25,362 nt of DNA from a virus (lineage: Duplodnaviria; Caudoviricetes), in IMG/VR virus record IMGVR_UViG_3300030330_002855, positions 1 to 25,362 of that record. One strand, 5' to 3'. Shown one piece after another: positions 9,917 to 24,718 of the stretch. How positions within the stretch are numbered: position 1 is the first letter of the stretch; the number at the start of each line of letters is the position of its first letter. A program made the translations under genes and the position numbers. The notes under the pieces were generated by a model, which made no database searches, was not told the origin of the DNA, and saw only the letters and a list, made by a program, of their open reading frames with translations.

Positions 9917-10231
9917 AAACTCTATTTCTTTTTCTTCTTTCAATAGCTTTAACTTAAAGAACCCATTATGTTCTGGATATCTTGCATGGAATAGTCTTGC
10001 GTAAAAAGATATGTAGTCGTTGCTTATCTTAAAGTCACCACCTTTTGTTTCTATCTCTTCGTTCCATCTAATCCTATTAATGATAGCCCAATGTGAGTAA
10101 TTCTTTCTGCCACTATTGATCGCTTCAAATGTGTACTGCTCAAACAAAAGCCATACACGCGGATTACTCTTGTGCCACTCCCACCAATCTCGCTTTCTTT
10201 TGTTTAGTTTCTTTTCGTAAAGTTCAATCAT
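9872..10231 (-). CDS. Conserved phage hypothetical protein (119 aa)
   Basis: NPRVW..F...RIRW...FKISNDY..FYARLF...P...GFF pattern recurrent in phages. Last gene of the leftward operon; overlaps the giant ORF tail-to-tail by 45 bp. Confidence 0.7.
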   Translation of the reverse strand: MIELYEKKLNKRKRDWWEWHKSNPRVWLLFEQYTFEAINSGRKNYSHWAIINRIRWNEEIETKGGDFKISNDYISFYARLFHARYPEHNGFFKLKLLKEEKEIEFLESKGYDRNVRLFS

Positions 10232-10565
10232 CTTTGTTCACCATAAGAGAAACAAAATGCTCCGCTTCTACTACTGCTAGAGTTTTGCTTCTGTTCCTTT
10301 TTATTATTACCAAAGGCTCGTAGCCTTTGCAGTTATCTTCAGCTTGCTGATAGGCTTTCCAGATGTTTACCGCCTCTTGATTCTTGCATTCAATAGAATA
10401 TGGAAACTTATCTCTGGACTGTTTGCCAAGTATAATATCCTCTCCTTGACTGCCCATCGGTCTACTTTCTAAATCTTCTTTATCTAAATTAAGTTTATCA
10501 ATCAACAAATTAGTAAACCATTGCTGTAACTTTCTCCCTTTTGCTTTCGCACTGCTAGCTTTCAT
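10224..10565 (-). CDS. Holliday junction resolvase-like PD-(D/E)XK nuclease (T5 D14-like)
   Basis: SAKAKGRKLQQW...MGSQGED...SIECKNQE...PLVIIKRNR motifs; GGGAG upstream. Confidence 0.8.
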   Translation of the reverse strand: MKASSAKAKGRKLQQWFTNLLIDKLNLDKEDLESRPMGSQGEDIILGKQSRDKFPYSIECKNQEAVNIWKAYQQAEDNCKGYEPLVIIKRNRSKTLAVVEAEHFVSLMVNKDD

Positions 10566-10649
10566 AACAAACTCCCTAAAGATAATGGACGGGTAAATAT
10601 TTTTTTATAACACCCTGCTGTAAAAATACAACAGAAACTATCAAAAATA

Positions 10650-10988
10650 TTAATCGCCATCATATCTCTTGCGCTCTTCCCTCTCGTTTACCTTTTTAGT
10701 TCTCCACTCTTCAAAGCCAATCTTTAAAGCATCTATCTGCACCTTGACTGACATCAAGTGTCCTTGTGCAATGCCTACATTCAATCTAGATTGATAGATT
10801 ACATCTTGATTTTCTGCGTATGTTTCTTGTGAAGCAACTGATTTATTGCCATGAGAGATAGCTTCTGTCTTCAGTCGAGCCATAAGTCTCTGCAAGTTTG
10901 CCTTCTCATTATGAACTTCTATCTCTGCTTTCTCTAAGACAGGAGCGAGACCTCTAATTTTTTCCATCCACAATTCTTTTTCTTCCAT
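10650..10988 (-). CDS. Helical phage protein, possibly a UvsY-like recombination mediator
   Basis: 112 aa coiled-coil ending WRT..VNER, inside the recombination operon; SD-like GGGGG upstream. Function is inference only. Confidence 0.55.
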   Translation of the reverse strand: MEEKELWMEKIRGLAPVLEKAEIEVHNEKANLQRLMARLKTEAISHGNKSVASQETYAENQDVIYQSRLNVGIAQGHLMSVKVQIDALKIGFEEWRTKKVNEREERKRYDGD

Positions 10989-10992
10989 TTGA

Positions 10993-11304
10993 TTACCCCC
11001 TTTGCACTTTACTAATCTTATCTATAGTAAATGCTTCATTTTTAGTAGCATCTTTTCTTATTTGTTCATACTTTTTTTTAACGCCATCCTTCATAAAGCT
11101 ACAGTAAGCTTCTCTAGTTTTAGGAAATAAACCATTCAAAACATATTCGATTTGGTCTGTCATTTTCATATCTAATTCTTCTTCAAAGTGCTCCATCAAC
11201 TTAAATTCATTTTCTGAAAAAGAAACTTTCACTGCAAAATAATTTATCTCTGTTCCTCTAAAACACCCTTTATAAGGATTATTATCTATAATTTTTATCG
11301 CCAT
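10993..11304 (-). CDS. Hypothetical protein (103 aa)
   Basis: GGAGG RBS 5 nt upstream of ATG; co-oriented with the operon. Confidence 0.7.
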   Translation of the reverse strand: MAIKIIDNNPYKGCFRGTEINYFAVKVSFSENEFKLMEHFEEELDMKMTDQIEYVLNGLFPKTREAYCSFMKDGVKKKYEQIRKDATKNEAFTIDKISKVQRG

Positions 11305-11386
11305 TTTATCCTCCGTTATTTAATGATCCGTTGCGACCACAGGTGGATCAAGCCTGCAACTTAAGTATGGAGTCACTTTGGTCTAA

Positions 11387-11599
11387 TCAAACACCCAATG
11401 CTGTTTGCTCTGCTTCCCTTTGGTTCTTGTCAATCACATACTGCAAGTAATCGATCAACAACTTGTGCGGTGTAGTCTTTAATGGATCACGCACATTCTC
11501 CAATTGTTTAGTCAAAGCATTGTAAGATGAAAGAAAGTTATGAAAGTCTTGCGGATTAGTAACTTCCTCTATCTCTTGTATTATTCCCTTTGCGTACAT
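11387..11599 (-). CDS. Hypothetical protein (about 70 aa, start revised to MYAKGII)
   Basis: ORF-track entry 11387..11782 overlaps the SSB-like gene. The ATG at 11599 lies just after the SSB stop and removes the overlap. Confidence 0.6.
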   Translation of the reverse strand: MYAKGIIQEIEEVTNPQDFHNFLSSYNALTKQLENVRDPLKTTPHKLLIDYLQYVIDKNQREAEQTALGV

Positions 11600-11603
11600 C
11601 TTT

Positions 11604-11933
11604 CTAAAAAGGGATATCTTCGTTGGCGAAAGGGTCGGACTGTTGTCTGTTATCATGTCCTCCCTCATTAGGTTTACTTTCTTGGGGTACATTATTGACC
11701 TCCTCTTTCTTTGGTTGTGGTAAATCAAATCGGGCATACTTGTATTCGTTGCCATCCCTTGACGTTCTATCCCAAAGGGCAACTCTAACTTCAGCTTCGC
11801 CCCCCTCTTTAACCTTAGTAACTAAACCTTTAAGTAGTTCTCTACTTAACTTAATTGATCCTGTCCAATCTGGTTGTTTATCTCCAGATTTAAAATTGTT
11901 TGTAAATATCTGTCCATCACTTTGTATCTGCAT
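11604..11933 (-). CDS. Single-stranded DNA-binding protein-like (DUF736-type OB fold, acidic IPF tail)
   Basis: N..K..DKQPDWTG...VALW..TS..G..Y pattern and C-terminal EDIPF. Start revised to ATG 11933, which has AGGAG upstream. Confidence 0.75.
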   Translation of the reverse strand: MQIQSDGQIFTNNFKSGDKQPDWTGSIKLSRELLKGLVTKVKEGGEAEVRVALWDRTSRDGNEYKYARFDLPQPKKEEVNNVPQESKPNEGGHDNRQQSDPFANEDIPF

Positions 11934-12654
11934 CACCAATCTCCTTTTCAAATGCATTTGTTTTCTTCATAAATTTGTCAATTAACTTTTTGTATTCTTC
12001 TGGCACTTGTTCCTCAAGAACCTTGAAGTGACTTTTGTTATTAACAAACAACTCTTTTAAGGATACAACATCTTCAGCTTTATCAATCAACGCTAACATA
12101 GGTGTAACAAATGTGTCAGCATATTTCTTAGGGTCTGATGTCCAGTCCTTTGTTTCTTCTTTTACTGGTTGCTTCTTAGGCTTTTCAGCTTTGACAACTT
12201 TCTCTTCAACCTTCTCTTCTTTTTCACTTGGAGGTAAATCCTCTCCCGCATAGATGTAATGCCCTAATCCAAAAAGTGCTAGAGTCTTTACCAAGCATCG
12301 CATCTTGGCGTCACTAACATCTCTAGAATTTGGATTAACTTTGGCATTGTTTCTGTTGTCCATAACAGGCAACCACATTTCTCTGGTTACAGAACCTATA
12401 GAAACTCTGCATCTAACTTCAGCAGTCTTGTCTGGAAAAAATACACAAGGTAAATTTGTTTGCGGATCATGATAAAAATCAATTACTGCATCGGGATAAT
12501 GATCCATCAAAACACCCCACGCCCATGCCCAAGATAAATAACTTAGGTTCATTTTCTTTTCAATATGATCGTTACAATCTACTTTACTAAGTGTATTCCA
12601 TATAGTTTGATAAGTAGGTTTAGATAAAAGTGCATCTAATGCTTTGTCATCCAT
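11917..12654 (-). CDS. Sak/Rad52-like single-strand annealing protein (DUF1071-type)
   Basis: EKK.NLSYLSWAWAW...LPVMD.RN...MRCLVK..ALFGLG.YIYAGEDLP signature; AGGAG RBS. Confidence 0.85.
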   Translation of the reverse strand: MDDKALDALLSKPTYQTIWNTLSKVDCNDHIEKKMNLSYLSWAWAWGVLMDHYPDAVIDFYHDPQTNLPCVFFPDKTAEVRCRVSIGSVTREMWLPVMDNRNNAKVNPNSRDVSDAKMRCLVKTLALFGLGHYIYAGEDLPPSEKEEKVEEKVVKAEKPKKQPVKEETKDWTSDPKKYADTFVTPMLALIDKAEDVVSLKELFVNNKSHFKVLEEQVPEEYKKLIDKFMKKTNAFEKEIGDADTK

Positions 12655-13534
12655 TCGCTAACTCCTCTTTATACTGGTTACAAAATTGAGCAACATTGCA
12701 GTATGCACCGCATCTAATTGATTCACCTTTAGAAATCTCTATAGATAAACCATCTTCGTTACTCCCCAAAAACTCTTCGGCTTCTTTCAGACTAGGTAAA
12801 ACTCTAATTGCTCTTTTCCTACCCTTCTTTATCACACGAAAAGTGTCCTCTCTTTTCCACCTGTCTTCATCAGAACATAGCGGTAACTCACCATCCATAC
12901 TATGTTTGAATTCAGAAGACCTATGAAAAGAAACTCTATCTTTAAAAAACTGCAACTGTTCTTGCTCAGACCACAGCGGTATATCAATAGTAATGATACT
13001 GCTCTTTGGATAATCACCGCCTCTTCTCTGCAACTCCCTTCGATTCCAGTCGCGAGCTATCGCAATAATATTTAACTGGTTAATGGTTTCTCCAGTGTTG
13101 TGCTTGTAGAGATATGCATAACAGTTAAGCTGTTTCTCCCAATCAGACTTGCCTTCCTTCAAAGCGTTGACCACAGTCCATACTGAAGTAACTTTATAAT
13201 CTTTAAGAATCTTATCATGCACAGCCAAGCTATCTGTCTGACCACTAACAGTCCATCCTTCTATGTCTGCAAACAATCTTTGCTCTGTAATAGTGTCATC
13301 ATAGTTTTCATTTGCCCTTTCTAATATTGCATGTACAGCTTGACCTAGTATTTTCCAAGTCTCATCTGAATAATCTAGAACAATATCATCATGATGTTTT
13401 CGCTCTAACAATCTGATTCTAGGAGGTTGCAATAAACCAGTTACACTTATGTCAGAGTTACCCCTAGTGTACTGGTCATTTTCTATTGCCCTAATAATCT
13501 CTTTAGGGATGTCATGCTTGTTAGTATATTTCAT
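12647..13534 (-). CDS. PD-(D/E)XK exonuclease (RecB/Cas4-like), partner of the annealase
   Basis: GQAVHAILE, E.RL, SGQTD, DYKVT motifs and C-terminal C...RC..YC.....C cysteines (possible Fe-S cluster). Confidence 0.85.
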   Translation of the reverse strand: MKYTNKHDIPKEIIRAIENDQYTRGNSDISVTGLLQPPRIRLLERKHHDDIVLDYSDETWKILGQAVHAILERANENYDDTITEQRLFADIEGWTVSGQTDSLAVHDKILKDYKVTSVWTVVNALKEGKSDWEKQLNCYAYLYKHNTGETINQLNIIAIARDWNRRELQRRGGDYPKSSIITIDIPLWSEQEQLQFFKDRVSFHRSSEFKHSMDGELPLCSDEDRWKREDTFRVIKKGRKRAIRVLPSLKEAEEFLGSNEDGLSIEISKGESIRCGAYCNVAQFCNQYKEELANG

Positions 13535-13821
13535 TCGTGAACATCGTAGTCGTGTAGTCTCCAGACTCTAAGACCATCAATGCGACCATCTGGGTCTTTT
13601 AAAAATCTGTAAGTAAATCTTTTCATTGGATTCTGCTCATTGCCATATCTTCTATAGCTAGCACAAACCCTGTTGCGGAACTTATCAACATCTTCTTTTT
13701 CCCTCATGGGTATCTTAACACTATCTCCTACATCCATTTGTTTCCAAGGATATCTTTCAGCTTTTGTGTTGCGAAGAATCATGTCGCTAGGAAATGGTAT
13801 ATTCTTATCTATCTTATGCAT
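13531..13821 (-). CDS. Small phage protein, paralog A (IDKNIP...YPW..M.VGDS...RVWRL)
   Basis: Start revised to ATG 13821 (TAATG coupling to the upstream gene). Motif pattern shared with the adjacent ORF. Confidence 0.7.
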   Translation of the reverse strand: MHKIDKNIPFPSDMILRNTKAERYPWKQMDVGDSVKIPMREKEDVDKFRNRVCASYRRYGNEQNPMKRFTYRFLKDPDGRIDGLRVWRLHDYDVHE

Positions 13822-14081
13822 TATTCTAACCTCCATATGCCTATGCCATTGACACCGTATTCATCTTCAGTAATTCTGCGAGTAGCAAATTTTCTTTTTG
13901 ATTTATTTTTGTAAGCCGATACAAAATTTCTAATTAATAATGCATCTTCATAATAATTATCCTCAGCCATAGGTACTTTTATCATCTCTCCAACCTGTAA
14001 TTCCTCTATGTTTATAGGGTATTTTTTAGGTCTGCCTGTACGTTTAGGCAACGGAATATCTTTTTCTATCTGATAACTCAT
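13821..14081 (-). CDS. Small phage protein, paralog B (IEKDIP...KYP...L.VGE...IWRL)
   Basis: GAGGG RBS; first gene of the leftward recombination operon. Confidence 0.75.
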   Translation of the reverse strand: MSYQIEKDIPLPKRTGRPKKYPINIEELQVGEMIKVPMAEDNYYEDALLIRNFVSAYKNKSKRKFATRRITEDEYGVNGIGIWRLE

Positions 14082-14111
14082 TTATAATCCCTCACATAAT
14101 TATGATATTAT

Positions 14112-14155
14112 ATAATAAATCATAGGTTGATAATATGCAACTTGTGTATTAGTAT
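14112..14155. promoter_or_regulatory. Divergent sigma70-like promoters
   Basis: Minus strand: TTGCAT (14140-14135)-N17-TATTAT (14117-14112). Plus strand: TTGATA (14127-14132)-N17-TAGTAT (14150-14155), which puts +1 at the ATG of 14162. Confidence 0.55.
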
Positions 14156-14161
14156 TTATAA

Positions 14162-14419
14162 ATGGCTAGTGGTGATGACAGTAAATTAATCAGAGCAATT
14201 TTTAAACAAGCAGTAAGAGATATTGCCAGTAAAGATTTGAATAAATCCACTGATGCCATGCAATATTTAAAGAGTGAGGACTTTCTAGATTTATGCGACA
14301 GTTTAAAGATCAATCATCAAGGTGCGGTGAAATCAATCATGGCACTAACTAATTATCCATTAATTTCAAGAAAGAAATTAGCCAACAATATTGCAAGGGA
14401 GATAGATACTTTAGTGTAG
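14162..14419 (+). CDS. Hypothetical protein (85 aa), probably leaderless
   Basis: L.RAIFKQAVRD...A..YL.SEDF..LC pattern; no SD; -10 element 7 nt upstream of ATG. Confidence 0.7.
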   Translation: MASGDDSKLIRAIFKQAVRDIASKDLNKSTDAMQYLKSEDFLDLCDSLKINHQGAVKSIMALTNYPLISRKKLANNIAREIDTLV

Positions 14420-14490
14420 TAGTTACTTACTACATTTACTAAGTGTTTATTTTAAAGGAGGTTACTACTTACTAGTAAGTTATTATAATA
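14415..14490. repeat. TACT-rich palindromic cluster upstream of the primase-helicase (promoter and possible origin/operator)
   Basis: TGTAGTA-N6-TACTACA (14415-14434), perfect palindrome ACTTACTAGTAAGT (14467-14480), TATTATAATA (14481-14490) containing TATAAT. Confidence 0.5.
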
Positions 14491-14507
14491 ATTTAGCGGA
14501 GAAAATT

Positions 14508-16262
14508 ATGGATGTCAACACAGCGGTAGAGTCGTCTACCTATTCCCTTAGCTTGGGACAACACAAAATCGCCTGTCCACTTTGTCAAGATACCCGATCA
14601 AAACATAAAAGGGATAAACCCTTATCAGTCAATATAGAAAGCGAAAAGATTATTTACAACTGCCATCACTGCGGTGAGAACGGAATCGTGCCAAAGAAAA
14701 CTCAAACAAGACTAAGAGCAGTCAAGCCAACACCAAAGCCTGTCACTAAAATAGATGAGCCTGTCAATGATTTGAGAAGCGTTGGCGCTTTATTTCTTAA
14801 AAGCAGAAAGATAAGTCCAGAGGTAGCTTTGTCTTACGGCACAGCGATTGGCGGATCAGGTGCAAATAAATATAAACCAGTCATAGGTTTTGTCTACCGC
14901 ACAGCAGAAGGGGATATTGAAGCTATCAAATATAGAGATGCCGAAGATAAAAGATTCTGGTGGGATGGCAATGCAACTAGGTTGTGGGGCACAAATGTCA
15001 AAGATAGAAAGCTACCCGATTTAGAAAACACCATTGTAATTACCGAAGGAGAGTTAGATGCCTTAGCAATCAAGACAGCCTTCCATGATTATATGAACGT
15101 AGAAGTTTATTCTGTACCAAATGGTGCGCCATCAAAGATTACTAACAATAAAGTCGATGCATCAGAGGACGGTAGATTTAAATACGTTTGGGAAGACAGG
15201 CAAAAGTTTGAGGGTGTAGAAAAGATTATACTGGCAACAGATAATGATGTGTCTGGTGATGTGTTAGCTGACGAATTATCTAGACGATTAAATAAAGCAA
15301 GGTGCTATCGTGTGGATTTCCAAGGCGAGAAAGATGCTAATGATTTGCTAATAGCAAAAGGCAAGTATGATTTAAAGCAGTCGATACTTAATGCAGAGCC
15401 GATACCATTACATGGATTAAACTCTATTGATCATTACTCAGAGGACTTCCAATCTCTGTACGAGAAAGGTATGCCTACTGGAGTTTCAACAGGTTTTGCT
15501 TCTGTGGATAAGCTGTTTACTCTTAGCACAGGAAATTTATTTGTCGTAACAGGATATCCCGGGGATGGCAAGTCAGCTTTTATTGACCAGTTAATAGTCA
15601 ATGTAGCTAGCAACAATGGTTGGAAGACTTGTTTCTGTAGTTTTGAAAAGCCACCTCATCTTCATGCAGTACAGATAGCACAAATACTTACAGGCAAACC
15701 CTTCTTTAAAGGCGTTAACACGCGAATGACACAAGAAGAAAAGGACTATGCAGAGTCATGGATTAAAGATCATATCTTGTTTCAAGACTATATGGATGGC
15801 GATATACCTACGATTGAAAGCATCTTGGAGAAGGGGGCGAATGCGGTACAGAGAGTCGGTGCAAGGATTCTAGTCATCGATCCGTTTAACTTTATTCAGA
15901 CTGACACTAAGTATGCGTTAGAAACAGACATGGTATCTGACATGCTTACTAAAGTTCAGTTGTTTGCAAAGCAACATGATGTCTTAGTATTTTTTGTAAG
16001 TCATCCGACCAAGCCACAAATTAGGGATGGCAAAAAGAATGTATGCACAGGAGTCGACATAGCTAAATCAATGGCATGGTTTTCTAAAGCAGACACAGGG
16101 ATTACAGTTTACAGAGGAGATGATGGAGTTCAGATTCATAACTGGAAAGCAAGATGGGGTTGGCAAGGTTCTCTTGGCAATGTTACGATGCAGTTCAATC
16201 CAGTTAACGGAAGGTATCGAGAGATAGCTAAAGTAGAAGATGACTTTGATTGGGAAATCTAA
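14508..16262 (+). CDS. Bifunctional DNA primase-helicase (T7 gp4/Twinkle-like)
   Basis: Zn ribbon CPLC...CHHC, TOPRIM ITEGELD and DND, Walker A GYPGDGKS, Walker B ILVID, HPTK motif; GCGGAG RBS. Confidence 0.93.
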   Translation: MDVNTAVESSTYSLSLGQHKIACPLCQDTRSKHKRDKPLSVNIESEKIIYNCHHCGENGIVPKKTQTRLRAVKPTPKPVTKIDEPVNDLRSVGALFLKSRKISPEVALSYGTAIGGSGANKYKPVIGFVYRTAEGDIEAIKYRDAEDKRFWWDGNATRLWGTNVKDRKLPDLENTIVITEGELDALAIKTAFHDYMNVEVYSVPNGAPSKITNNKVDASEDGRFKYVWEDRQKFEGVEKIILATDNDVSGDVLADELSRRLNKARCYRVDFQGEKDANDLLIAKGKYDLKQSILNAEPIPLHGLNSIDHYSEDFQSLYEKGMPTGVSTGFASVDKLFTLSTGNLFVVTGYPGDGKSAFIDQLIVNVASNNGWKTCFCSFEKPPHLHAVQIAQILTGKPFFKGVNTRMTQEEKDYAESWIKDHILFQDYMDGDIPTIESILEKGANAVQRVGARILVIDPFNFIQTDTKYALETDMVSDMLTKVQLFAKQHDVLVFFVSHPTKPQIRDGKKNVCTGVDIAKSMAWFSKADTGITVYRGDDGVQIHNWKARWGWQGSLGNVTMQFNPVNGRYREIAKVEDDFDWEI

Positions 16263-16755
16263 ACTTAAGATAAACGAAATAGGTAATGCCTATCTTCATT
16301 CAAAGCAGAGGGTAGGCATTTCAAAGGTTGAAGATACTAATATTGCTAGAGCAATAGTGTATGATCAGCACATCATAGATAGTCTTTATCTCAGTAACAA
16401 ACTAAACGAAAGCGAACACAATGCTTGTGATAAATACCTAGGTCTCATTGCAACTAGCGGTGCGTTTTTGCAAAGCTCAGCAGGAGCTGTTGATAAAATA
16501 TTTACTGGTCAATCTTTTCCTTCTACGCCTCGTTCTATTGTTCTCATCAAAGTTCAAAGAGAATTAAAAAAAGAATGCGGAGAACAAATAGAAAGAAAGT
16601 TCTGGAGAATAATGGTTGATTCACCTAAAGAATTAGATGATATAGATATACAAGTGGTGAAGACCTCGGCTAAAACTTTACTAAACTACTGGTATATTAG
16701 TCTTGGTGAAAGCCCTGTTGTGATGTTCCAACAAGCCCTTGAAGACCGACCTTGA
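16240..16755 (+). CDS. Hypothetical protein (171 aa)
   Basis: Overlaps the end of the helicase gene, co-oriented; converges on the RHH gene. Confidence 0.65.
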   Translation: MTLIGKSKLKINEIGNAYLHSKQRVGISKVEDTNIARAIVYDQHIIDSLYLSNKLNESEHNACDKYLGLIATSGAFLQSSAGAVDKIFTGQSFPSTPRSIVLIKVQRELKKECGEQIERKFWRIMVDSPKELDDIDIQVVKTSAKTLLNYWYISLGESPVVMFQQALEDRP

Positions 16756-16963
16756 CATCAGATGGCAGTTCCGCAGTCGTTGGAACGTCACTAATTTTTT
16801 CTAACCAATCTGGTTTTTTTACTTCAACTTCTATGCCCAACCTTTCTGCTTCGTTGTGAATTAAATGTATGATTTGTTTAGTAACTGATCTGCTTTCTTT
16901 TTTAGCAAGATCATTTGCCAACTGATAAGTTTCTTCTGAACATCTAATGTATAGATTTTTCAT
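16697..16963 (-). CDS. Ribbon-helix-helix (Arc-like) DNA-binding protein
   Basis: KNLYIRCSEETYQLANDLAKKESRSVTKQIIHLI fits the beta-alpha-alpha RHH pattern; start at 16963 or 16969. Confidence 0.75.
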   Translation of the reverse strand: MKNLYIRCSEETYQLANDLAKKESRSVTKQIIHLIHNEAERLGIEVEVKKPDWLEKISDVPTTAELPSDVKVGLQGLVGTSQQGFHQD

Positions 16964-17237
16964 CCTCATATTCCTCTATGTGTATGGTGTCTTCAACCTT
17001 ACCAACTGCAACTGATTCATTTCCCAACTGCCAAAACTTACCTGTCTGCAATCTTTCTAATGCGTGTGCTAAGTAATGCTCATTGCCAATCAACACAGGG
17101 TCAGTCAATAAAGTGATCGCATAAGCCATAGCTTTTCGTTCAGTATCAAACAACCAAACCTTGTGTTGCCATTCACCTTGAGAGTTATACTTATCTCTAA
17201 GATCAAGCACAAACGTATGTCTTATTACTGCGTACAT
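16944..17237 (-). CDS. Hypothetical protein (97 aa), probably leaderless
   Basis: No SD; ATG 7 nt downstream of a TATAAT. Confidence 0.7.
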   Translation of the reverse strand: MYAVIRHTFVLDLRDKYNSQGEWQHKVWLFDTERKAMAYAITLLTDPVLIGNEHYLAHALERLQTGKFWQLGNESVAVGKVEDTIHIEEYEDEKSIH

Positions 17238-17243
17238 AGATTT

Positions 17244-17272
17244 ATTATATAGCTTAATGCAAGCCTTGTGAA
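17244..17272 (-). promoter_or_regulatory. sigma70-like promoter for the 97-aa/RHH operon
   Basis: TTCACA (17272-17267)-N17-TATAAT (17249-17244). Confidence 0.65.
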
Positions 17273-17292
17273 ATCTTTAGTCGAACATCAAT

Positions 17293-17320
17293 AAAAAAGG
17301 GAGCAACTTGCGTTACTCCC
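17293..17320 (-). terminator. Intrinsic terminator
   Basis: GGGAGUAAC-GCAA-GUUGCUCCC followed by U6. Confidence 0.85.
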
Positions 17321-17356
17321 TTTGCGGAGGTGTCAACCAAATGGAATCGTCAACAC
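17293..17356 (-). ncRNA. Candidate small RNA 1 (antisense to the primase-helicase translation start)
   Basis: GUGUUGAC-GAUUCCAUUUG-GUUGACAC hairpin, CUCCGCAAA linker and terminator, directly downstream of a promoter. 5' end uncertain by a few nt. Confidence 0.65.
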
Positions 17357-17360
17357 AATA

Positions 17361-17388
17361 ATTATACGTTATAGATTGCATAGTGCAA
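17361..17388 (-). promoter_or_regulatory. sigma70-like promoter of sRNA 1
   Basis: TTGCAC (17388-17383)-N16-TATAAT (17366-17361). Confidence 0.65.
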
Positions 17389-17393
17389 GAAAA

Positions 17394-17441
17394 AAACTAC
17401 ATATAGTGTATTAATTATTTAGCCACCACAATATGTTGTGC
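17394..17441. promoter_or_regulatory. Tandem NrdR-box-like sites
   Basis: AAACTACATATAGTGT (17394-17409) and CCACAATATGTTGTGC (17426-17441) fit the consensus acaCwAtATaTwGtgt and are offset by 32 bp. Confidence 0.6.
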
Positions 17442-17535
17442 TTTTGCCGCGAGTTAAAAAAAATATTTACTGGTCAACAGTCGTTTACCACAGGTATTAA
17501 AAACACAGGTGTAGGTAAAGCAACTTTTAATAGAT

Positions 17536-17563
17536 AAAAAAAAGGGATGACTATTGCCATCCC
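17536..17563 (-). terminator. Intrinsic terminator (end of early operon / sRNA 2)
   Basis: GGGAUGGC-AAUA-GUCAUCCC followed by U8. Confidence 0.85.
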
Positions 17564-17598
17564 GAAGGGGGTATCACGAATGAATAACTAATCGTGAT
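17536..17598 (-). ncRNA. Candidate small RNA 2 (antisense to recombination-gene translation starts)
   Basis: AUCACGA-UUAGUUAUUCAU-UCGUGAU hairpin, ACCCCCUUC linker and terminator; same design as sRNA 1. Confidence 0.6.
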
Positions 17599-17601
17599 TA
17601 A

Positions 17602-17629
17602 ATTATATATTAAACCTCAATAAGTTCAA
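17602..17629 (-). promoter_or_regulatory. sigma70-like promoter of sRNA 2, overlapping the end of the upstream CDS
   Basis: TTGAAC (17629-17624)-N16-TATAAT (17607-17602). Confidence 0.5.
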
Positions 17630-17840
17630 CTTCCTCTATCGACACTTCTCTGTGGACAACCTCACAGTTATCTTGCCCTGTCCAATAGAATAAGTATCGA
17701 CCATCTGTCTGCTGATACTCCTCGAGTGCTCTTATTGTCTCTTCAACTTTTTGTTCTGCTTGCTCAGCGTTTTCTGCATCAACTTCCACAGTAAAAGAAT
17801 CTGTGGTGATCATTCCAACTTTAAACTTTTTAATTCCCAT
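17610..17840 (-). CDS. Small acidic protein, DpnD/PcfM-like
   Basis: KKFKV......TVEVDAENAEQAEQKV pattern; GGAGG RBS. Confidence 0.65.
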   Translation of the reverse strand: MGIKKFKVGMITTDSFTVEVDAENAEQAEQKVEETIRALEEYQQTDGRYLFYWTGQDNCEVVHREVSIEEVELIEV

Positions 17841-17871
17841 TTGTGTGTCCTCCCTGCTGTAAAAAAAATAT

Positions 17872-18069
17872 TTATTGACCCGTTAATAATCCTTCCTCAA
17901 TGAATTCTTTGTCTGCCAAGCAATCTTGACATACCAAAGTCGAGCCATCGTCAAAGGTGTCTCGATAACCTCGGCTATCGAAAACACCGTACACATCTCC
18001 CGTTGTCCAGAGATCGTCATCTTTATCAACGATCTCCTCGCATCGATCACACCAGTTCTGCTCTCTCAT
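17872..18069 (-). CDS. Small acidic Zn-finger protein (CxxC...CxxC)
   Basis: CDRC and CQDC; ATGA overlap with the upstream gene. Confidence 0.7.
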   Translation of the reverse strand: MREQNWCDRCEEIVDKDDDLWTTGDVYGVFDSRGYRDTFDDGSTLVCQDCLADKEFIEEGLLTGQ

Positions 18070-19430
18070 CGGTACGCTTCTTCAGCATCAAGGTAGATGT
18101 GTTTACCAAAAGGTAAGTTCTCTGCCATGCGCTTGATGTAATAGTCATCAGTAAAGAATCGCTCATCAGTAATCGCCCAATAGACTGGCAAGTCTGGTTG
18201 CAATTCTGCATTCACATCGCCATGACCATCCGTAAAATAGATTAGTGCCTGTATCTCATGTGCATTATCGGTGTAGTCATTGAGTAAATTCATGACTGGA
18301 TCAAACTCTGTGTAATAACCACCGCGCAACTTGAACTCGATCTCATCGCCACAGCTTAGATCAAAGACATCCCACCATTCACCATCACTATTTTTTCTAA
18401 CGATGTGATCACAGTAACAGACCATTACTTTGTCTAGCCCTAATTCCTCAGCAATAACTCTGGTTTCTTTCGCCATGTAGTCAGCTTCCTTCTGACTGAC
18501 TGACACACTTGAATCCATAGCGATAGCTAACACACCGCCATCAACACTATGCGTGGGCGATGGCATGTGAACACCTCTCCAAGAATGCTTTCTATTAGGC
18601 TTAGACCATGTGTAATCATCAGCTATATTTGACTTCATATCATCGCCAATCACCTCAGACCATTTGATGGTAGATTTTCTAGCTATATCTGACATAACAC
18701 CTATTAAGGCATTCCCTTCACCGTTGCCATGTGATCGCTCTAGCTTCTCGCCCATAACGACATCTTGTCTGAGTGCGCTAGCCATTTCTTCTAACTCCTC
18801 GCCATTAAACTCTCTGCCATCGTCATGTTTAGGCATAATGATTTCGCCTTGCGAGTCTGGAAGATTGTCATACTTTGATGGCGGAGGAGTGTTCTGTGTG
18901 CCATCCTCAGAAGAATATTTACCAGTCGATTGTTGTTCATCTTCTGTGCCGTCATCAGAGTCGGAGTCATTCCCAGATTGATCGCTGTTGCTCTCATCAT
19001 TCTGTTCTTTATCTTGATCCAACTCATCATCCAAGATGGAGTAAACTTTCTCAGCACCCATACCTTTAAATCGCGCGTCATACAATCCACCTTCGGGCAA
19101 CTTCATTCCAAGTACATCTAGAATATACATATTGATCACATAGTCACACGCGATATTCCAAAGTTTATGATTGCGTTTACCGATCCTTAAATGATGCTCA
19201 AAGATAACGTGACAACCCTCATGAAATAAAACACCCTGTATCGCTTCGGATAATAAATCTTTCACAAATTCTGGATTGTAATAAATCTTACGACCATCTG
19301 TTGCCATAGTCGGCTTAGTCTCATCTTCGACAATCTCTAAAGGTAAGAGTATTGATGCCATGCCAACTTGATCGCGCATGAGGGCGGTTCTCGCCTTTAT
19401 TACCATTTCTTTAGGGGTAAGGTTAGTCAT
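18066..19430 (-). CDS. Metallopeptidase-VWA protein (DUF2201-like)
   Basis: TMATDG, HEGCH...H..R, WNIACDY.IN, acidic linker, PNR, MIDAS-like DSSVS and FTDG. Confidence 0.88.
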   Translation of the reverse strand: MTNLTPKEMVIKARTALMRDQVGMASILLPLEIVEDETKPTMATDGRKIYYNPEFVKDLLSEAIQGVLFHEGCHVIFEHHLRIGKRNHKLWNIACDYVINMYILDVLGMKLPEGGLYDARFKGMGAEKVYSILDDELDQDKEQNDESNSDQSGNDSDSDDGTEDEQQSTGKYSSEDGTQNTPPPSKYDNLPDSQGEIIMPKHDDGREFNGEELEEMASALRQDVVMGEKLERSHGNGEGNALIGVMSDIARKSTIKWSEVIGDDMKSNIADDYTWSKPNRKHSWRGVHMPSPTHSVDGGVLAIAMDSSVSVSQKEADYMAKETRVIAEELGLDKVMVCYCDHIVRKNSDGEWWDVFDLSCGDEIEFKLRGGYYTEFDPVMNLLNDYTDNAHEIQALIYFTDGHGDVNAELQPDLPVYWAITDERFFTDDYYIKRMAENLPFGKHIYLDAEEAYR

Positions 19431-20382
19431 TCTTTAACCCTCCTAATTTAGCAAGGAAATCGCCTTTGAGAGGATCAATTGCACTCTTCAAATCTGTTGA
19501 GACTTCCTCGCGTTTACTGGCTGACTCATCGCTATCCTGTCTGAGCGAATCGACAGAATCTATCTTCGCCATGATGCCCACTAATTTTTGATGTGCATCT
19601 TTGACCGATGAAATATCACCAAGTATATCTTTATTGAAATTAGGCAGTACAGAAATAGCCTGTCTGAGTTTCTCAAAGGATGAATCCTTAAAGAATCCAC
19701 CTTGTTTATCTTTAGGATCGTACTGACCCACCTTATCAGCGATGTGAGAGACTTGTTCAACTAGTGAGTCAATGATCGCCTTACTCGCTGAGAGTGCGTT
19801 AGATTGAATCCTGTTGGTTACATCGCTCTCTATCTTTGCCCTTGCGGATGCTGACACCTTTAATCTGATATCAGATGAGTAATTAGGGATCATGTTAGTC
19901 TCAAATTCAAAACGGAACTTCTCTCTAATGTAATCACTATCTGGGTAATCTAAAGGATCAAATGCATCGCCTAATAATACTTTGGCTTGTTTAATCCTAT
20001 CTGGATAAAACTCAAGAAACTCATCAACCTCCTTTTCAAAGTCTCGCTTAGACTGGCTCATCTGAGCAATCAGATTGTCCAGATTTGAGTTAGGGCATAA
20101 CCTCCACCCAGATACTACCATCCCTTCATCATCTGAGGAGTTATCATTCCAAGGCAATGTATTAGGATAGTAAAACTCATTCCTTACTTTGTTGATAATC
20201 CTACGAAAGTATTTGGAGTGCTCTTTACCCACCAGATATTTCTGCACGTTTAATAAGTCAGATTGTGCTGACACATCATCAGCCAACTGTGAACGTAGGT
20301 CTTTATCAGATTTGATGCCACTCCAAAACTTAGTGGTGAATCTCACCAGTGTTGCTGTCTCATGTAATGTAGATTTTTCCAT
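19423..20382 (-). CDS. Helical protein, DUF3150-like
   Basis: K.L...TLPW...GWRL.P...F...Y...LG..F...DYP pattern; lies between the AAA+ and VWA genes; AGGAGG RBS. Confidence 0.7.
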   Translation of the reverse strand: MEKSTLHETATLVRFTTKFWSGIKSDKDLRSQLADDVSAQSDLLNVQKYLVGKEHSKYFRRIINKVRNEFYYPNTLPWNDNSSDDEGMVVSGWRLCPNSNLDNLIAQMSQSKRDFEKEVDEFLEFYPDRIKQAKVLLGDAFDPLDYPDSDYIREKFRFEFETNMIPNYSSDIRLKVSASARAKIESDVTNRIQSNALSASKAIIDSLVEQVSHIADKVGQYDPKDKQGGFFKDSSFEKLRQAISVLPNFNKDILGDISSVKDAHQKLVGIMAKIDSVDSLRQDSDESASKREEVSTDLKSAIDPLKGDFLAKLGGLKND

Positions 20383-20416
20383 TTATTTTTTCCTCCTAAA
20401 AAATATTATTGACCAA

Positions 20417-21463
20417 TCAATATTCGATGTGCTGATTATTGATCTTGAATCCAGAGTAGGCTGACGAATCTTTTAACTCTGGTCTTCTCGCCACGCATTG
20501 ACGCACAAAGAATATCGAGAACTCTGGCGTATCCATTCCACTAACAAATGCTAGTGCATTTTCAAAATATCTGTGGATCAATTCATTGGATGCGGTTTCT
20601 ATCTTATCCATCAGAGCAATACAGGTGGCATAACATACACCGCCCTTTGTAGGTACTTGCGCTTCAACACCGTTAACAATGTCTGACAGATTAGGAACGT
20701 CATCCATAAGCATTATAAAGTTAGCAAACTCAGTAGCTTGTAACTCGCCAACTGAAGACACAGCCATTTCTCTCCACATATCTTTAGGCAGTCCAGTTTT
20801 TAGAATGTCACTCAGCCTAGTCCATGATCTTGGGTTAGCTTGCGCTCCATCAGACTTAGCATCAAAGATATTGAGAGCCTGTGGTTGAAATGACAGATAA
20901 CCCATAACATAAGGATTTACTTTATTCTCAGTACCCCATCGCTCCCAATCTTCAAATACGACATCACACTCAATCAACTGTACTCTCTCAACTAAATGAG
21001 TCGGCAGTCGATTACTGGATGCGCGATCCGATACGCGGTTACAGGCTAGCACCACTCGCCAACCCTTGGGTAGTACATACTCTCCTAGTCGCTTATCACT
21101 AATTAACTGAGACACTAGGCATACAACACTGGGATGAGCCTGTGCGACCTCATCAAGGAATAACAGACCTTCGCCACCTGTGGGAAGATTACCCAGAAAG
21201 GCTCGTTTCTGTTGTCCATTGTCATTAATGTAAGGCAGTCCAGAAAGGTCTAATGACTCATACAGCGGTAATCTGAAATCTATAAACCCATACTCATCCT
21301 CATTAGGCTTTATACTATCTACTACTTTCCTACCATCAGCTAACTTATCAACTAGCTGTCTAACTGTCGCTGACTTACCGATCCCTGTTCCACCTATCAG
21401 ACAGGGCGTATGATTAGCCTTAACGATCCACTCAGTGTGGCTTGCTACTTTTGACATCTTCAT
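20417..21463 (-). CDS. MoxR-like AAA+ ATPase
   Basis: Walker A GGTGIGKS, Walker B LFLDE, ACNR..DRA, NPRSW; GGAGG RBS. Confidence 0.9.
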   Translation of the reverse strand: MKMSKVASHTEWIVKANHTPCLIGGTGIGKSATVRQLVDKLADGRKVVDSIKPNEDEYGFIDFRLPLYESLDLSGLPYINDNGQQKRAFLGNLPTGGEGLLFLDEVAQAHPSVVCLVSQLISDKRLGEYVLPKGWRVVLACNRVSDRASSNRLPTHLVERVQLIECDVVFEDWERWGTENKVNPYVMGYLSFQPQALNIFDAKSDGAQANPRSWTRLSDILKTGLPKDMWREMAVSSVGELQATEFANFIMLMDDVPNLSDIVNGVEAQVPTKGGVCYATCIALMDKIETASNELIHRYFENALAFVSGMDTPEFSIFFVRQCVARRPELKDSSAYSGFKINNQHIEY

Positions 21464-21495
21464 AGAATGTCCTCCATGTAATTTAAGTTTAATGT

Positions 21496-21543
21496 GGTAT
21501 CAATAGACACCAGTAAACCCACTCTCACGAATGGGCTTAACTG
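21496..21543 (-). other. Intergenic double RNA hairpin upstream of the AAA+ gene
   Basis: CAGUUAAGCCCAUUC-GUGA-GAGUGGGUUUACUG (GNRA loop) abutting GGUGUC-UAUU-GAUACC; no U-tract. Confidence 0.6.
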
Positions 21544-21547
21544 CTAG

Positions 21548-21988
21548 CTACTTTATAAAACTTGGTTTTTTATAAAGGCAATCGTTAAACAAATCAATTG
21601 TCCTTACAGCATCCTCCAAGGTATCGTAGTGATCCACCGCGGTGTAATCATCTAAGTCAAATTTCTCTGAATCTGATGATGGTGCGTAAACTACCCACCC
21701 ATCATCATGACGCTCATGCTTTCTGATCAACCAATTTCTGTAGACGAATACCTCTTCATCCCACTCAGTTAGTCCAATCCAATTTGTAAACGTAATTACT
21801 TCAAAATCTAAATCCTCAATATTCTGTAATGCACTGAGCGTCCATGTGTCAGTTTTCATTAATTGTTTAAACTTTTTTGCTGTCGCGCACACTGGATAGT
21901 AACGATCATGATTTGTTTTGTTATATGCTTTCCTATGGCTAAGAGCATCTTCTCCATACACTACAAAAATTTTCTTTGTTGATTCCAT
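21548..21988 (-). CDS. Hypothetical early protein (146 aa)
   Basis: GAGG RBS. N-terminal VYG....YYPVC..AK.F..L....T.T...L..I..L.F pattern is common in marine phage early genes. Confidence 0.75.
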   Translation of the reverse strand: MESTKKIFVVYGEDALSHRKAYNKTNHDRYYPVCATAKKFKQLMKTDTWTLSALQNIEDLDFEVITFTNWIGLTEWDEEVFVYRNWLIRKHERHDDGWVVYAPSSDSEKFDLDDYTAVDHYDTLEDAVRTIDLFNDCLYKKPSFIK

Positions 21989-22028
21989 TTTTAATTCCTC
22001 TATTTAAGTTAATCGATTATCACTAAGT

Positions 22029-22190
22029 TTATGCGTAAACATTACGTCTAGTGTTTCTGTCTTTAGACCATTGCTTCGGTCTACCTTTATCTTTAGTTCT
22101 CTTACCTCTCTGGATACCATTCCAGAAATCTAGGTTTACCTTGTCGAACTTGCGAACGGCTATCCGTTCTTTGTTTATGTTGCTTGTCAT
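22029..22190 (-). CDS. Small basic early protein (53 aa, start revised to MTSNINK)
   Basis: GGAGGT RBS 5 nt upstream of ATG 22190; K/R-rich. Confidence 0.65.
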   Translation of the reverse strand: MTSNINKERIAVRKFDKVNLDFWNGIQRGKRTKDKGRPKQWSKDRNTRRNVYA

Positions 22191-22263
22191 GTAACACCTC
22201 CAAGTGTCTGTTTTTGTTAAGGTTTGTATGGGTGGCGCACCTCGCGCCCTGTCCATACTTATA

Positions 22264-22291
22264 AGTATAATGATATTTAGCATATAAGCAA
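22264..22291 (-). promoter_or_regulatory. Early-operon promoter overlapped by 12-bp-period direct repeats
   Basis: TTGCTT (22291-22286)-N16-TATACT (22269-22264); TATAAG repeats end at 22288, 22300 and 22312. Confidence 0.55.
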
Positions 22292-22352
22292 GCATATAAG
22301 TAGGTATATAAGTATGATCAGAGAATGACTGTTGATCGGTTAATATTTATTC

Positions 22353-22835
22353 ATGACAGAGAAATCAAAACCACAGTTAAAGGTAGTAAAGAAACGCACC
22401 GATCTAACACCCAAACAAAGGGCATTTGTAGAGGGTATTGTCAAAGGTAAGTTAGGAAGCCATATAGAGGTTTATATGAGTGTATATGATGTAGCTCGTA
22501 CCAAGACAGGCGGCATACCTAAACACGCTTACGTTGATTGCAGTAAGCTTATGTCGCACCCTAAGATTAGCCTATCAATATCTAATGGGCTACAGCGTAA
22601 GGAGGACAGTTTAGTAGCTTCAGCCCACAGGACAAGATCATATGTCATAGAACAGCTATATAAAGAGTCTAAAGAGTCAGACAGTGATGCCAGTCGCGTT
22701 CGTGCTTTAGAGCTACTTGGGAAGTCTGTATCTCTGTTTAGTGATGTAGTAGAAACAAAAGAGAGTAGGTCGAGTGATCTAATAGAGAGTGAAATAGAAA
22801 GTAGATTAGTAGAGTTATTAAAAGATAAAGAGTAA
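22353..22835 (+). CDS. terS: Terminase small subunit
   Basis: LTPKQRAFV HTH start, SKLMSHPKI, RVRALELLGK...LF motif; upstream of terL. Confidence 0.85.
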   Translation: MTEKSKPQLKVVKKRTDLTPKQRAFVEGIVKGKLGSHIEVYMSVYDVARTKTGGIPKHAYVDCSKLMSHPKISLSISNGLQRKEDSLVASAHRTRSYVIEQLYKESKESDSDASRVRALELLGKSVSLFSDVVETKESRSSDLIESEIESRLVELLKDKE

Positions 22836-23050
22836 AAAGAATTCTTTTTTGAATCTTTTATTTTTGACCCCCCTACCCCCCTTGACAGCAGTCGACTGAC
22901 TGACAACATATACATAGTAATTCACACAAACAATCACTAGTTTTCATGCCTCTACCCCTTTAATTGCATTTTGCTAGCACTTTTTTAGTATGCCCCAACC
23001 CCCTATTTCTAGGATTTTGCTCAAGGGACCCTACCCCCCCTAAATTTTTT
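22834..23050. other. terS-terL spacer with C-tracts and T-tracts, candidate pac site / genome terminus region
   Basis: AAAAAGAATTCTTTTT palindrome (22834-22849), C6-TA-C6 (22868-22881), CCCCAACCCCC (22993-23003), C3-TA-C7 (23029-23040). Confidence 0.45.
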
Positions 23051-23051
23051 G

Positions 23052-23087
23052 TTGACTTTTATGTGAAGAGGGCTAATATTGTATAAT
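23052..23087 (+). promoter_or_regulatory. Candidate promoter for terL/portal
   Basis: TTGACT (23052-23057)-N16-TAATAT (23074-23079), plus a TATAAT at 23082-23087. Confidence 0.5.
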
Positions 23088-23209
23088 CTGTAGTTAGATA
23101 TACCTTGAGTGCCAGTTAGGTAGTTACTAGATATTAGTATGTACCTACTATAGGAACTACATATTCTTTTTTTTAGAAGGTTTATACAAGACAGGTATGA
23201 ACTACATAT

Positions 23210-24709
23210 ATGGTTACTAGTGTTTTAGACAAGATACAGCATCTAAGTGTAGAGGATAAGCGAGAATTATTGTCGCTGTTAGAAGAACTTGAGGATGCCA
23301 AGCTACGCGAGGCTTGTGAAGACAAGTTTTTATCGTTTGTTCAGTCTATGTGGGTAGCTTTTATTCATGGAAAGCACCATGAAATTATGGCTGAGGCGTT
23401 TGAACGGGTCGCAAGTGGGGAGTTAAAGCGTTTAATTATTAATATGCCCCCTCGACATACCAAGTCTGAGTTCGCATCTTATCTTTTACCTGCATGGTTT
23501 CTAGGAAAATACCCCAATAAGAAGATTATACAGACTGCTCACACCGCTGAGTTGGCTGTTGGCTTTGGCAGGAAGGTTAGAAACCTAGTAAATAGCAAAG
23601 ATTATAAAGAAATATTCACAGATGTTAGCTTACAAGCGGATAGTAAAGCCGCAGGTCGTTGGAATACGAACAAAGGCGGTGAATATTTTGCGATTGGTGT
23701 GGGCGGTGCGGTCACCGGTAAGGGTGCAGACCTATTAATCATCGATGATCCGCACTCAGAACAGGAAGGTGCGAGTTCTGACGTTAATGTTTTTAACAAA
23801 ACCTACGAATGGTACACCTCTGGACCGCGACAGCGTCTACAACCGGGCGGTTCTATCGTAGTAGTCATGACTCGATGGCATCAAAGAGATTTGACGGGTC
23901 AATTAATAGACGCAAGTGTGAAAAGAGGCGGTGCAGATGAGTGGGAAGTCATAGAACTTCCTGCAATTATGCCATCTGGCTCCCCATTATGGGCGCAGTT
24001 CTGGAAATTAGAGGAATTAGAGGCGCTCCGCGCAGAATTACCCGCGTCAAAGTGGATGGCTCAGTACCAACAGGACCCAACTGCGGAAGAAGGGGCGATA
24101 GTTAAGCGTGAATGGTGGAATGAATGGGAATATCGGGAGCCACCTGACTGTGAATTTGTGATTCAGTCGTGGGATACCGCGTTTCTTAAGTCTCAAAGAG
24201 CAGATTACTCGGCTTGTACCACATGGGGCGTGTTTTATCGGGAAGATGAGCACAGTGGTAAGGTAGTTCCACAGATAATTCTACTTGATGCACACAAAGC
24301 TAGGCTTGAGTTCCCAGAATTAAAGCAGAGAGCAATGGAATGCTATCAATCCTATAAGCCAGACGCATTTATCGTGGAAGCAAAAGCGGCAGGTATGCCT
24401 TTAATCTTTGAATTAAGACAAATGGGAATACCTGTACAAGAATATACGCCTAGTCGAGGTAACGACAAGATAGCTAGGGTGAATGCAGTAGCCGATTTAT
24501 TTTCTTCTGGCATTGTTTGGGCTCCGGCAACGCGATGGGCGGAAGAAGTGATAGAAGAGTTTGCGTCTTTCCCTAATGCAGAGCATGACGACTTAGTGGA
24601 TAGCAGTACGCAAGCACTGTTAAGGTTTAGGCAGGGTGGATTTGTACCATTGTATTCTGATGAAGAAGACGAAGAGATAGATAACACTCGAATCGCAAAT
24701 TATTATTAG
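23210..24709 (+). CDS. terL: Terminase large subunit
   Basis: INMPPRHTKS Walker A, LLIIDDP Walker B, MTRWH..DL.G, nuclease motifs QSWDTA...DYSA and HDDLVDS. Confidence 0.95.
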   Translation: MVTSVLDKIQHLSVEDKRELLSLLEELEDAKLREACEDKFLSFVQSMWVAFIHGKHHEIMAEAFERVASGELKRLIINMPPRHTKSEFASYLLPAWFLGKYPNKKIIQTAHTAELAVGFGRKVRNLVNSKDYKEIFTDVSLQADSKAAGRWNTNKGGEYFAIGVGGAVTGKGADLLIIDDPHSEQEGASSDVNVFNKTYEWYTSGPRQRLQPGGSIVVVMTRWHQRDLTGQLIDASVKRGGADEWEVIELPAIMPSGSPLWAQFWKLEELEALRAELPASKWMAQYQQDPTAEEGAIVKREWWNEWEYREPPDCEFVIQSWDTAFLKSQRADYSACTTWGVFYREDEHSGKVVPQIILLDAHKARLEFPELKQRAMECYQSYKPDAFIVEAKAAGMPLIFELRQMGIPVQEYTPSRGNDKIARVNAVADLFSSGIVWAPATRWAEEVIEEFASFPNAEHDDLVDSSTQALLRFRQGGFVPLYSDEEDEEIDNTRIANYY

Positions 24710-24718
24710 GAGAGTTAA

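Follow-up and report, generated by a model that had tools for sequence, protein, structure and literature searches.

A conserved candidate small RNA of marine phages predicted to act in trans on the translation starts of primase-helicase and early genes

Introduction

The plasmid countertranscripts CopA and pT181 RNAI exert antisense control on the translation of a replication protein, and are cis-encoded, fully complementary to it and devoted to a single target. The sar RNA of phage P22 is also encoded opposite its target. It has about 68 nt and blocks translation initiation of a phage mRNA (PMC12197685). The c4 antisense RNA of phages P1/P7 is structured and trans-acting, and pairs around the ribosome-binding site (RBS) of an mRNA of the phage itself, with a sequence co-adapted to that of the target (PMC12197685). 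Other trans-acting phage sRNAs, like PreS of lambda and VpdS of VP882, promote replication through host targets or Hfq (PMC12197685). In Alphaproteobacteria, the RNAs of the Cuckoo family (RSs0680/C14/NfeR1) contain two to four hairpins, each with a CCUCCUCCC loop (PMC4615179). Concerning the control of deoxynucleotide supply, the enterobacterial nrdAB promoter contains NrdR sites as tandem boxes 31–32 bp apart, together with DnaA boxes (PMC2892513).

The window analyzed here, i.e. the whole stretch of 25,362 nucleotides of the Caudoviricetes record IMGVR_UViG_3300030330_002855, contains two candidate small RNAs, units 1 and 2, which would work like the c4 and sar antisense controls and can be considered a variant of them. 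As with c4, they are phage-encoded and structured, with predicted pairing in trans at RBSs of the same phage and, for unit 2, co-variation with targets. Yet they do not belong with c4, as the message on which c4 acts is that of the antirepressor (ant), whereas the co-varying targets are here those of primase-helicase, AAA ATPase and DUF3150. Also, the seed is here the linker between hairpins, no antirepressor family was found among the 27 proteins of the 25-kb window fragment, and there was no match to C4-type models when the window was compared to Rfam at E up to 1 (two weak, unrelated matches were obtained elsewhere in it). Nine related loci gave no Rfam match at gathering score; so, the search for a described family suggested by the initial annotation returned nothing relevant. 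While sar acts on ant, the units of the window face several partly complementary targets located 2.8–6.6 kb away. The likeness to the plasmid countertranscripts lies in the predicted antisense control of replication protein translation, but the cis-encoded class (OOP, aQ and plasmid countertranscripts) was rejected because there is no gene on the strand opposite to either unit, and the longest exact match of a unit elsewhere is of 11 nt.

The resemblance to the Cuckoo family is the exposure of a C-rich, anti-Shine–Dalgarno-like motif among variable stems. Membership was ruled out by the presence of a single ACCUCC/UCCUCC seed, mostly between hairpins and with flanks tuned to the own genes of the phage, instead of two to four loops. 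With PreS and VpdS the common trait is that of a phage trans-acting sRNA tied to DNA replication; however, those RNAs promote replication, while the sRNA of the window is predicted to repress the replication genes of the phage itself. Finally, nrdAB carries NrdR and DnaA boxes at one promoter, whereas here they are alternatives between lineages and precede a phage non-coding RNA. No description of this sRNA family was found in the literature covered; subscription papers and the supplementary motif tables of large RNA screens, outside that coverage, could hold one.

Results

Genomic setting

The window contains large virion genes, a Sak/exonuclease/RusA module on the minus strand, terminase and portal genes, and the following replication-related and early genes:

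14508-16262, plus strand: primase-helicase gene
21463-18066, minus strand: early operon with the genes of AAA ATPase, DUF3150 and DUF2201

DUF3150 was the sole family confirmed by an Atlas search. The public sources listed with related sequence were of DNA, mostly marine metagenomes. The phage was ascribed to no named group or host, since a DNA search with positions 16200–18100 gave no match to named phages, the best terminase identities were 54–59% (DSL-LC04, HTVC027P/023P), and those of primase and AAA ATPase were at most 35%. Two protein searches of prokaryote genomes gave no copy of the locus, and tyrosine integrase was absent from the five records searched (four of them at least 90% complete).

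Three other features of these genomes were recorded. Contig FUFK010037491.1 (L085–L095), a record of 396 kb, contains six or more repeats of the same 59.9-kb unit, and is likely a circular phage that was concatenated during assembly. Window positions 22880–23060, between terS and the terL/early region, show G-rich tracts and a dyad, possibly a packaging or genome-end region. A hairpin with a short U tail (21536–21508, minus strand), between a 146-aa gene and the AAA ATPase RBS, could be an attenuator or a processing site, and is the origin of a weak Rfam match to BTnc231.

Structure of the two units

17536..17598, minus strand: unit 1 RNA, with a hairpin (17598-17573), the anti-Shine–Dalgarno motif ACCCCC (17572-17567) and a terminator (17563-17544) plus U run
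17602..17629, minus strand: promoter-like site of unit 1, TTGAAC-16-TATAAT, found by promoter scan (10/12 consensus)
17293..17356, minus strand: unit 2 RNA, member of the conserved slot, with a hairpin (17356-17330), the seed ACCUCC (17331-17326) and a terminator (17323-17296) plus U run
17361..17388, minus strand: promoter of unit 2, TTGCAC-16-TATAAT, read in the sequence, family motif

The initial annotation had described both units on the minus strand, each with a promoter of the form TTG..-N16-TATAAT, a 5′ hairpin with an anti-start loop, a C-rich linker and a terminator. Hairpins, linkers and terminators were found in the two units as described. Folding was far better on the minus strand (z of −5.4 for unit 1 and −4.9 for unit 2, with 0/200 shuffles each) than on the plus strand (−3.0 and −1.1, respectively). 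The 5′ hairpin of unit 1 has 7 bp and a 12-nt loop (17591–17580) that ends in UUCAU (anti-AUG), followed by the linker ACCCCCUUC. That of unit 2 has 8 bp, with two G-U pairs, forms only on the minus strand and shows UCCAU (anti-AUG) in the loop; it is followed by ACCUCCGC. Their terminators are the first two among the 15 listed for positions 9500–25362.

Concerning the promoters, the unit 1 site was listed by the scan, while that of unit 2, with a first hexamer of only 3/6 consensus, was missing from the list. As this −35 is weak, and promoter-like hits in the AT-rich window were not above chance (7 found versus 11.9 expected), conservation had to decide on the unit 2 promoter: its first 15 nt form a family motif, with a TTGCA-N3-TGCAA dyad, present in 67/84 clusters of related loci versus 0.2 expected. 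The unit 1 site overlaps the terminal part of the 76-aa gene (17610–17840) that closes the early genes. It does not recur as a motif of the family, so that a 3′-end fragment of the early transcript is another possible origin of unit 1.

Unit 1 variants in related DNA contigs retain pairing. In those of three runs (X13, X16, X19) the anti-AUG is changed to UAU, which keeps a G-U pair while the start of the plus-strand mini-ORF is lost (ATG reads ATA); in one related contig, a different hairpin and C-run are followed by the same terminator. Relatives carry a plain early-operon terminator at the place of unit 1. Unit 2 showed no change, among the matches listed, in DNA contigs of eight other runs, except for one divergent contig; its layout is preserved in that contig and in the related locus L033.

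Conservation of the unit 2 slot

The family set was obtained by searching for the 97-aa gene located downstream of unit 2, which gave 162 loci, or 163 with the window. At least 450 nt of upstream sequence were available for 148/163, which were grouped in 87 clusters. A slot was called when CCTCC, or a close variant, occurred at most 75 nt before a terminator. This rule was passed by 74 clusters, from which an off-slot hit (L115) was removed to leave 73 units; in several of the 13 clusters without a call a seed is visible, but at a distance from the terminator that the rule does not admit.

So, an anti-Shine–Dalgarno seed precedes the terminator of the slot in 73/87 clusters, versus 3/130 terminators elsewhere (45 loci, same rule), and the promoter motif is upstream of 61 of the 73 units. 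Their median length is 98 nt and their layout is a 5′ hairpin, a single-stranded seed, an optional hairpin and the terminator. The median unpaired probability of the seed is 0.98, an accessibility modestly above the null (44/61 versus 62% at a threshold of at least 0.7). The segment from seed to terminator folds better than shuffles in 31/42 cases; the 5′ segment does so more weakly (32/67 versus 20/60 coding controls). An alignment of 21 units with MAFFT was too misregistered for pair counting. As predicted from these features, unit 2 has what is expected in general of a trans-acting anti-RBS sRNA: its own promoter, an intrinsic terminator and a single-stranded seed.

Two units were found in 1/87 clusters, which is the window's own; the modular array of the initial annotation is thus not supported as the general design. 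Neither is the anti-start codon supported as a defining part: an anti-AUG at start-codon spacing occurs in 46/73 units (18.8 expected) and, as shown below, the co-variation signal is elsewhere in the RNA.

When DNA was scanned for the promoter together with the seed, 54 matches were obtained: 34 in family-set contigs (32 with terminator) and 20 elsewhere (6 with terminator). A search with the primase gave 26 loci, of which 5 were too short, 11 contained seed and terminator (one being the dropped false hit L115) and 10 did not.

Several variations of the slot were also observed. Its 5′ part contains longer shared, apparently structured inserts in L003 (9500–9800), L056, L115, L054, L116, L057, L120, L141, L142 and L158, with no Rfam match at gathering score in the nine loci compared. 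The clade of L254, L255 and L246 keeps the promoter, the NrdR-type boxes and the seed, with no terminator within 140 nt and with extra genes before the 97-aa gene. In L094 and L078 an internal duplication places two seeds in one RNA.

Co-variation of the seed with phage translation starts

Starts were picked by a rule of Shine–Dalgarno (SD) strength and pairing energies were computed without target structure. The class of starts on the opposite strand was left out, as it was judged contaminated by the RNA's own antisense ORF. The 18 clades used were hand-drawn from a quick tree and are still related to each other.

With one locus per seed type, own versus foreign early starts (29 loci, 174 starts) gave z values of 5.7 for flank pairs outside GGAGG and −9.0 for duplex energy, while middle starts (18 loci, 68 starts) gave 0.6 and −1.8. 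When the analysis was run by orthologue family, 3/16 stood out: primase-helicase (z −6.6), AAA ATPase (−5.5) and DUF3150 (−6.7). At the level of the 18 clades, and with the 29-nt seed alone, the values were −5.5, −5.1 and −4.7, respectively, with 15/18, 14/18 and 15/18 clades favourable, and 18/19 for all early starts. At this level, own pairing was not significant for the other 13 families. The sRNA-target co-variation for which the initial annotation had called was thus found for primase-helicase; the AAA ATPase and DUF3150 targets of the early operon were absent from it, as were the host-regulator-type boxes described below. Sak and exonuclease were not significant as targets across the family.

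The signal is located in the 29-nt seed: it was lost with flank-shuffled seeds (z between −2.6 and 2.0 over 18 runs), and family-wide co-variation was absent from the 5′ part when the core was left out (z 0.9, −0.4 and 1.3). Among sister pairs on the tree, pooled early starts were favourable in 13/15 by energy (p 0.004) and in 11/14 when flank pairs were counted (p 0.03), but the tests of individual genes did not reach significance (primase 8/12, AAA ATPase 10/14, DUF3150 8/15). In held-out loci, the result was marginal for primase (combined p 0.047; 6 loci, one of them ranking 42/59) and not significant for early starts (p 0.19; 5 loci). G-U pairs were not in excess in own duplexes, so co-variation alone cannot separate RNA pairing from copying at the DNA level.

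Concerning the SDs themselves, a full GGAGG is present in 174/250 early starts versus 54/229 middle starts, and in early SDs it is followed by A in 23/43 starts where the seed is UCCUCC versus 35/131 otherwise. An AGUU in the 3′ hairpin may form a second seed, directed at AACU ahead of SDs: AGTT occurs in 31/42 segments (15.9 expected) and AACT in 28/41 AAA ATPase starts, but early leaders overall showed no excess (91/270 versus 81.7 shuffled).

Predicted targets in the window phage

14478..14527, plus strand: primase-helicase start, best predicted target of unit 2, with three blocks (GCGGAG, AUGGA and GUCAACAC)
12635..12684, minus strand: Sak annealase start, with which both units are predicted to pair in the window phage
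13515..13564, minus strand: exonuclease start, with an 11-nt exact match to unit 1
10969..11018, minus strand: start of a 112-aa gene with a GGGGG-type SD, best predicted target of unit 1 and also of unit 2
20363..20412, minus strand: DUF3150 start, co-varying across the family and moderate in the window phage (rank 5–8 of 46)
21444..21493, minus strand: AAA ATPase start, co-varying across the family and not a target in the window phage (rank 23–25 of 41)

Pairing within the window was tested on 26 curated starts, and orthologous starts of relatives were used for ranking. The best of the 26 for unit 2 was primase-helicase (−27.4 kcal/mol), with pairing blocks that span the SD, the AUG and codons 3–5, followed by Sak and the 112-aa gene. 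The latter was the best for unit 1 (−25.8 kcal/mol), with Sak in second place. Either best energy was equalled by 1/150 shuffles. In the ranking, the window's own starts occupied positions 1/42 (primase-helicase), 1/32 (Sak) and 2/37 (112-aa gene) with unit 2, and 1/37 (112-aa gene), 2/32 (Sak) and 2/38 (exonuclease) with unit 1; two less plausible genes also ranked high (2/47 and 2/41). For this lineage, these predictions agree with the replication and recombination starts put forward as targets by the initial annotation.

When the core was kept in the shuffles, 0/22 were as good as unit 2 for primase or Sak, while 4/22 were as good as unit 1 for the 112-aa gene, a match that is largely the GGGGG core. 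Over 12 families, the own start was among the top two in 3 and 5 cases for the two units, while the 22 core-kept shuffles of each reached at most 2 and 3. The identification of the 112-aa gene as UvsY is a lead only (0.88), and structure look-ups with the 112-aa protein, and with the 88-aa protein described below, gave nothing useful. Two further stretches of the near-identical record G001 gave no extra strong targets among real-looking genes.

Promoter-adjacent boxes and neighbouring genes

17426..17441, minus strand: NrdR-type box 1, by the consensus assumed here
17394..17409, minus strand: NrdR-type box 2, by the same consensus, 32 bp from box 1 and ending 5 nt before the −35 of unit 2
16944..17272, minus strand: promoter (17272-17244) and leaderless 97-aa gene, directly downstream of unit 2
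16697..16963, minus strand: 88-aa gene with a weak lead to ribbon-helix-helix proteins, whose product is a candidate to regulate through the promoter dyad

The promoter of unit 2 is preceded by two 16-bp NrdR-type boxes at the 31–32 bp spacing of nrdAB, according to NrdR- and DnaA-type consensuses which we take to apply here. With them, NrdR-type boxes were found in the 700 nt upstream in 36/84 clusters (1.8 expected) and DnaA-type boxes in 53/84 (12.2 expected), while 28 NrdR-type pairs with a spacing of 31 or 32 bp were counted over 900 nt, versus about 0.1 in 700-nt shuffles. Within 90 nt of 61 sRNA promoters, from clusters that are related, 45 had only DnaA-type boxes, 9 only an NrdR pair, 2 both and 5 neither. 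In 42/47 cases, 3 or 14 nt separate the last DnaA box from the −35; for the NrdR pair, this distance is of 5–8 nt in 11/11. In L043, L048, L050, L051, L002 and L036, an NrdR-type pair is placed at the promoter of the leaderless 97-aa gene, some 100 nt upstream of it; most of these lineages have DnaA-type boxes at the sRNA promoter.

Two other motifs characterize the control block. A parS-like 16-bp palindrome is present in 60/84 clusters versus 0 expected; no partition gene or integrase was seen alongside it, and no such palindrome was apparent by eye in window positions 17237–17750. It lies about 45–60 nt upstream of the 97-aa gene, for instance in L007 (6290–6320), L016 and L023. An AT-rich motif of the ACTGGTAAATAT type (window 17461–17476) is found in 63/84 clusters versus 0.8 expected. 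It occurs also downstream at lower density and could be an operator or an origin iteron.

In the 97-aa gene, a −10 box lies 6–8 nt before the ATG in 68/87 clusters and an SD-like word occurs in 5/87; without an SD, this gene would escape the sRNA. The 88-aa family gave leads to Arc (E 0.0044) in 1/9 members and to HicB in 2/9, while the window's own 88-aa protein matched neither. The TTGCA-N3-TGCAA dyad (window 17374–17388) overlaps the −35 of the sRNA, and a related inverted copy is present in the next promoter, that of the 97-aa gene, in relatives. The 88-aa ribbon-helix-helix-like protein is a candidate binder of this dyad.

Discussion

It seems reasonable to interpret that unit 2 is probably a conserved phage sRNA that represses in trans the primase-helicase and early genes of the phage itself, likely under the host regulators NrdR or DnaA. 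The trans-acting antisense design of the initial annotation is favoured by the predicted pairing, the own promoter, the terminator and the seed. Transcription would start at a sigma-70-type promoter of the unit itself, and the single-stranded C-rich seed of the RNA would mask in vivo the extended SDs of primase-helicase and early-operon genes. Binding of host NrdR or DnaA to the promoter-adjacent boxes would tie the level of RNA to the nucleotide or replication state. If NrdR acts on the unit 2 promoter as the repressor that it is at nrd promoters, a shortage of deoxynucleotides in the host would lead to synthesis of the RNA, and replication would be kept waiting until these are plentiful or the host is permissive.

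Four other explanations deserve consideration. The first, which we deem unlikely by itself, is that the RNA confers immunity: a phage genome resident in the cell without integration would produce it, and it would silence the early and primase genes of incoming kin, with seed and RBS flanks co-diverging into heteroimmune groups, like the heteroimmunity described for c4 of P1/P7 (PMC12197685). The clade-specific seed flanks that track their own RBSs, the absence of tyrosine integrase from the five records and the parS-like palindrome speak for it; however, the prokaryote genomes searched gave no copy of the locus, the invariant ACCUCC core would cross-react between clades, and no partition or repressor gene was found. 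This explanation is compatible with repression of the own genes, the two not being mutually exclusive.

A little less credible is a broad anti-SD agent, directed against host mRNAs or against SD-led translation in general, which would spare the leaderless 97-aa gene and for which the matches to phage starts would be secondary. The invariant core is indeed an anti-SD, the downstream gene is leaderless, and there is a faint own bias at middle starts (p about 0.04–0.05). Against this, the flanks co-vary with three phage gene families and not with 13 others, for which an RNA aimed at the host gives no reason.

We grant equally little credit to the explanation that there is no regulatory RNA, and that the terminators flank a replication-origin or control block in which inverted copies of RBS cassettes are kept alike by duplication or conversion of DNA. 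DnaA-type boxes, the parS-like site and the repeated AT-rich motif fit an origin, relatives have a plain terminator at the place of unit 1, and G-U pairs are not in excess. On the other hand, the promoter of the unit is conserved, its orientation is fixed, the hairpin-seed-hairpin-terminator layout is maintained, and folding is better on the minus strand through G-U pairs. Moreover, the matches are short, discontinuous and to genes on both strands, and unit 2 is unchanged in close relatives, among the matches listed, though its flanks vary.

Finally, that the plus-strand mini-ORFs, which read RBS-ATG-MNN* in unit 1 and RBS-ATG-MESSTQ* in unit 2 as annotated, are the products is largely refuted and scarcely believable, as the good SD-ATG spacing, with ATG so placed in 46/73 units, is outweighed by the 33 different peptides (2 to about 100 aa) among those 46 units and none in the other 27, by the change of the unit 1 ATG to ATA in the three runs, and by terminators that point the opposite way; they are by-products, as initially proposed.

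Returning to repression in trans by unit 2 as the preferred interpretation, unit 1 would be a second RNA, specific to the lineage, that shares this design but has CCCCC as its seed and derives from the 3′ end of the early operon, and it would add a feedback control on recombination genes (112-aa gene, Sak and exonuclease). A wider and more tentative proposal, to which we attach rather low confidence, is that these integrase-less marine phages use the sRNA in place of a CI-type repressor, at a level set by host NrdR or DnaA. The sRNA would silence primase-helicase and early genes, and the phage would wait as an episome with parS for deoxynucleotides to become available in the starved host. Immunity groups would arise by joint divergence of seed and RBS, and the lineage of the window would have added the second RNA for recombination genes.

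The locus bears on the open question of how marine phages that have neither an integrase nor a known repressor time their replication when the host grows slowly and is starved. It offers a circuit, cheap to test, that would run from host nucleotide or replication sensors, through an RNA of 60–100 nt, to the primase-helicase start. The co-varying pairs of seed and RBS form a natural series that provides ready-made compensatory tests, and would show the co-evolution of an sRNA and its targets across a phage group.
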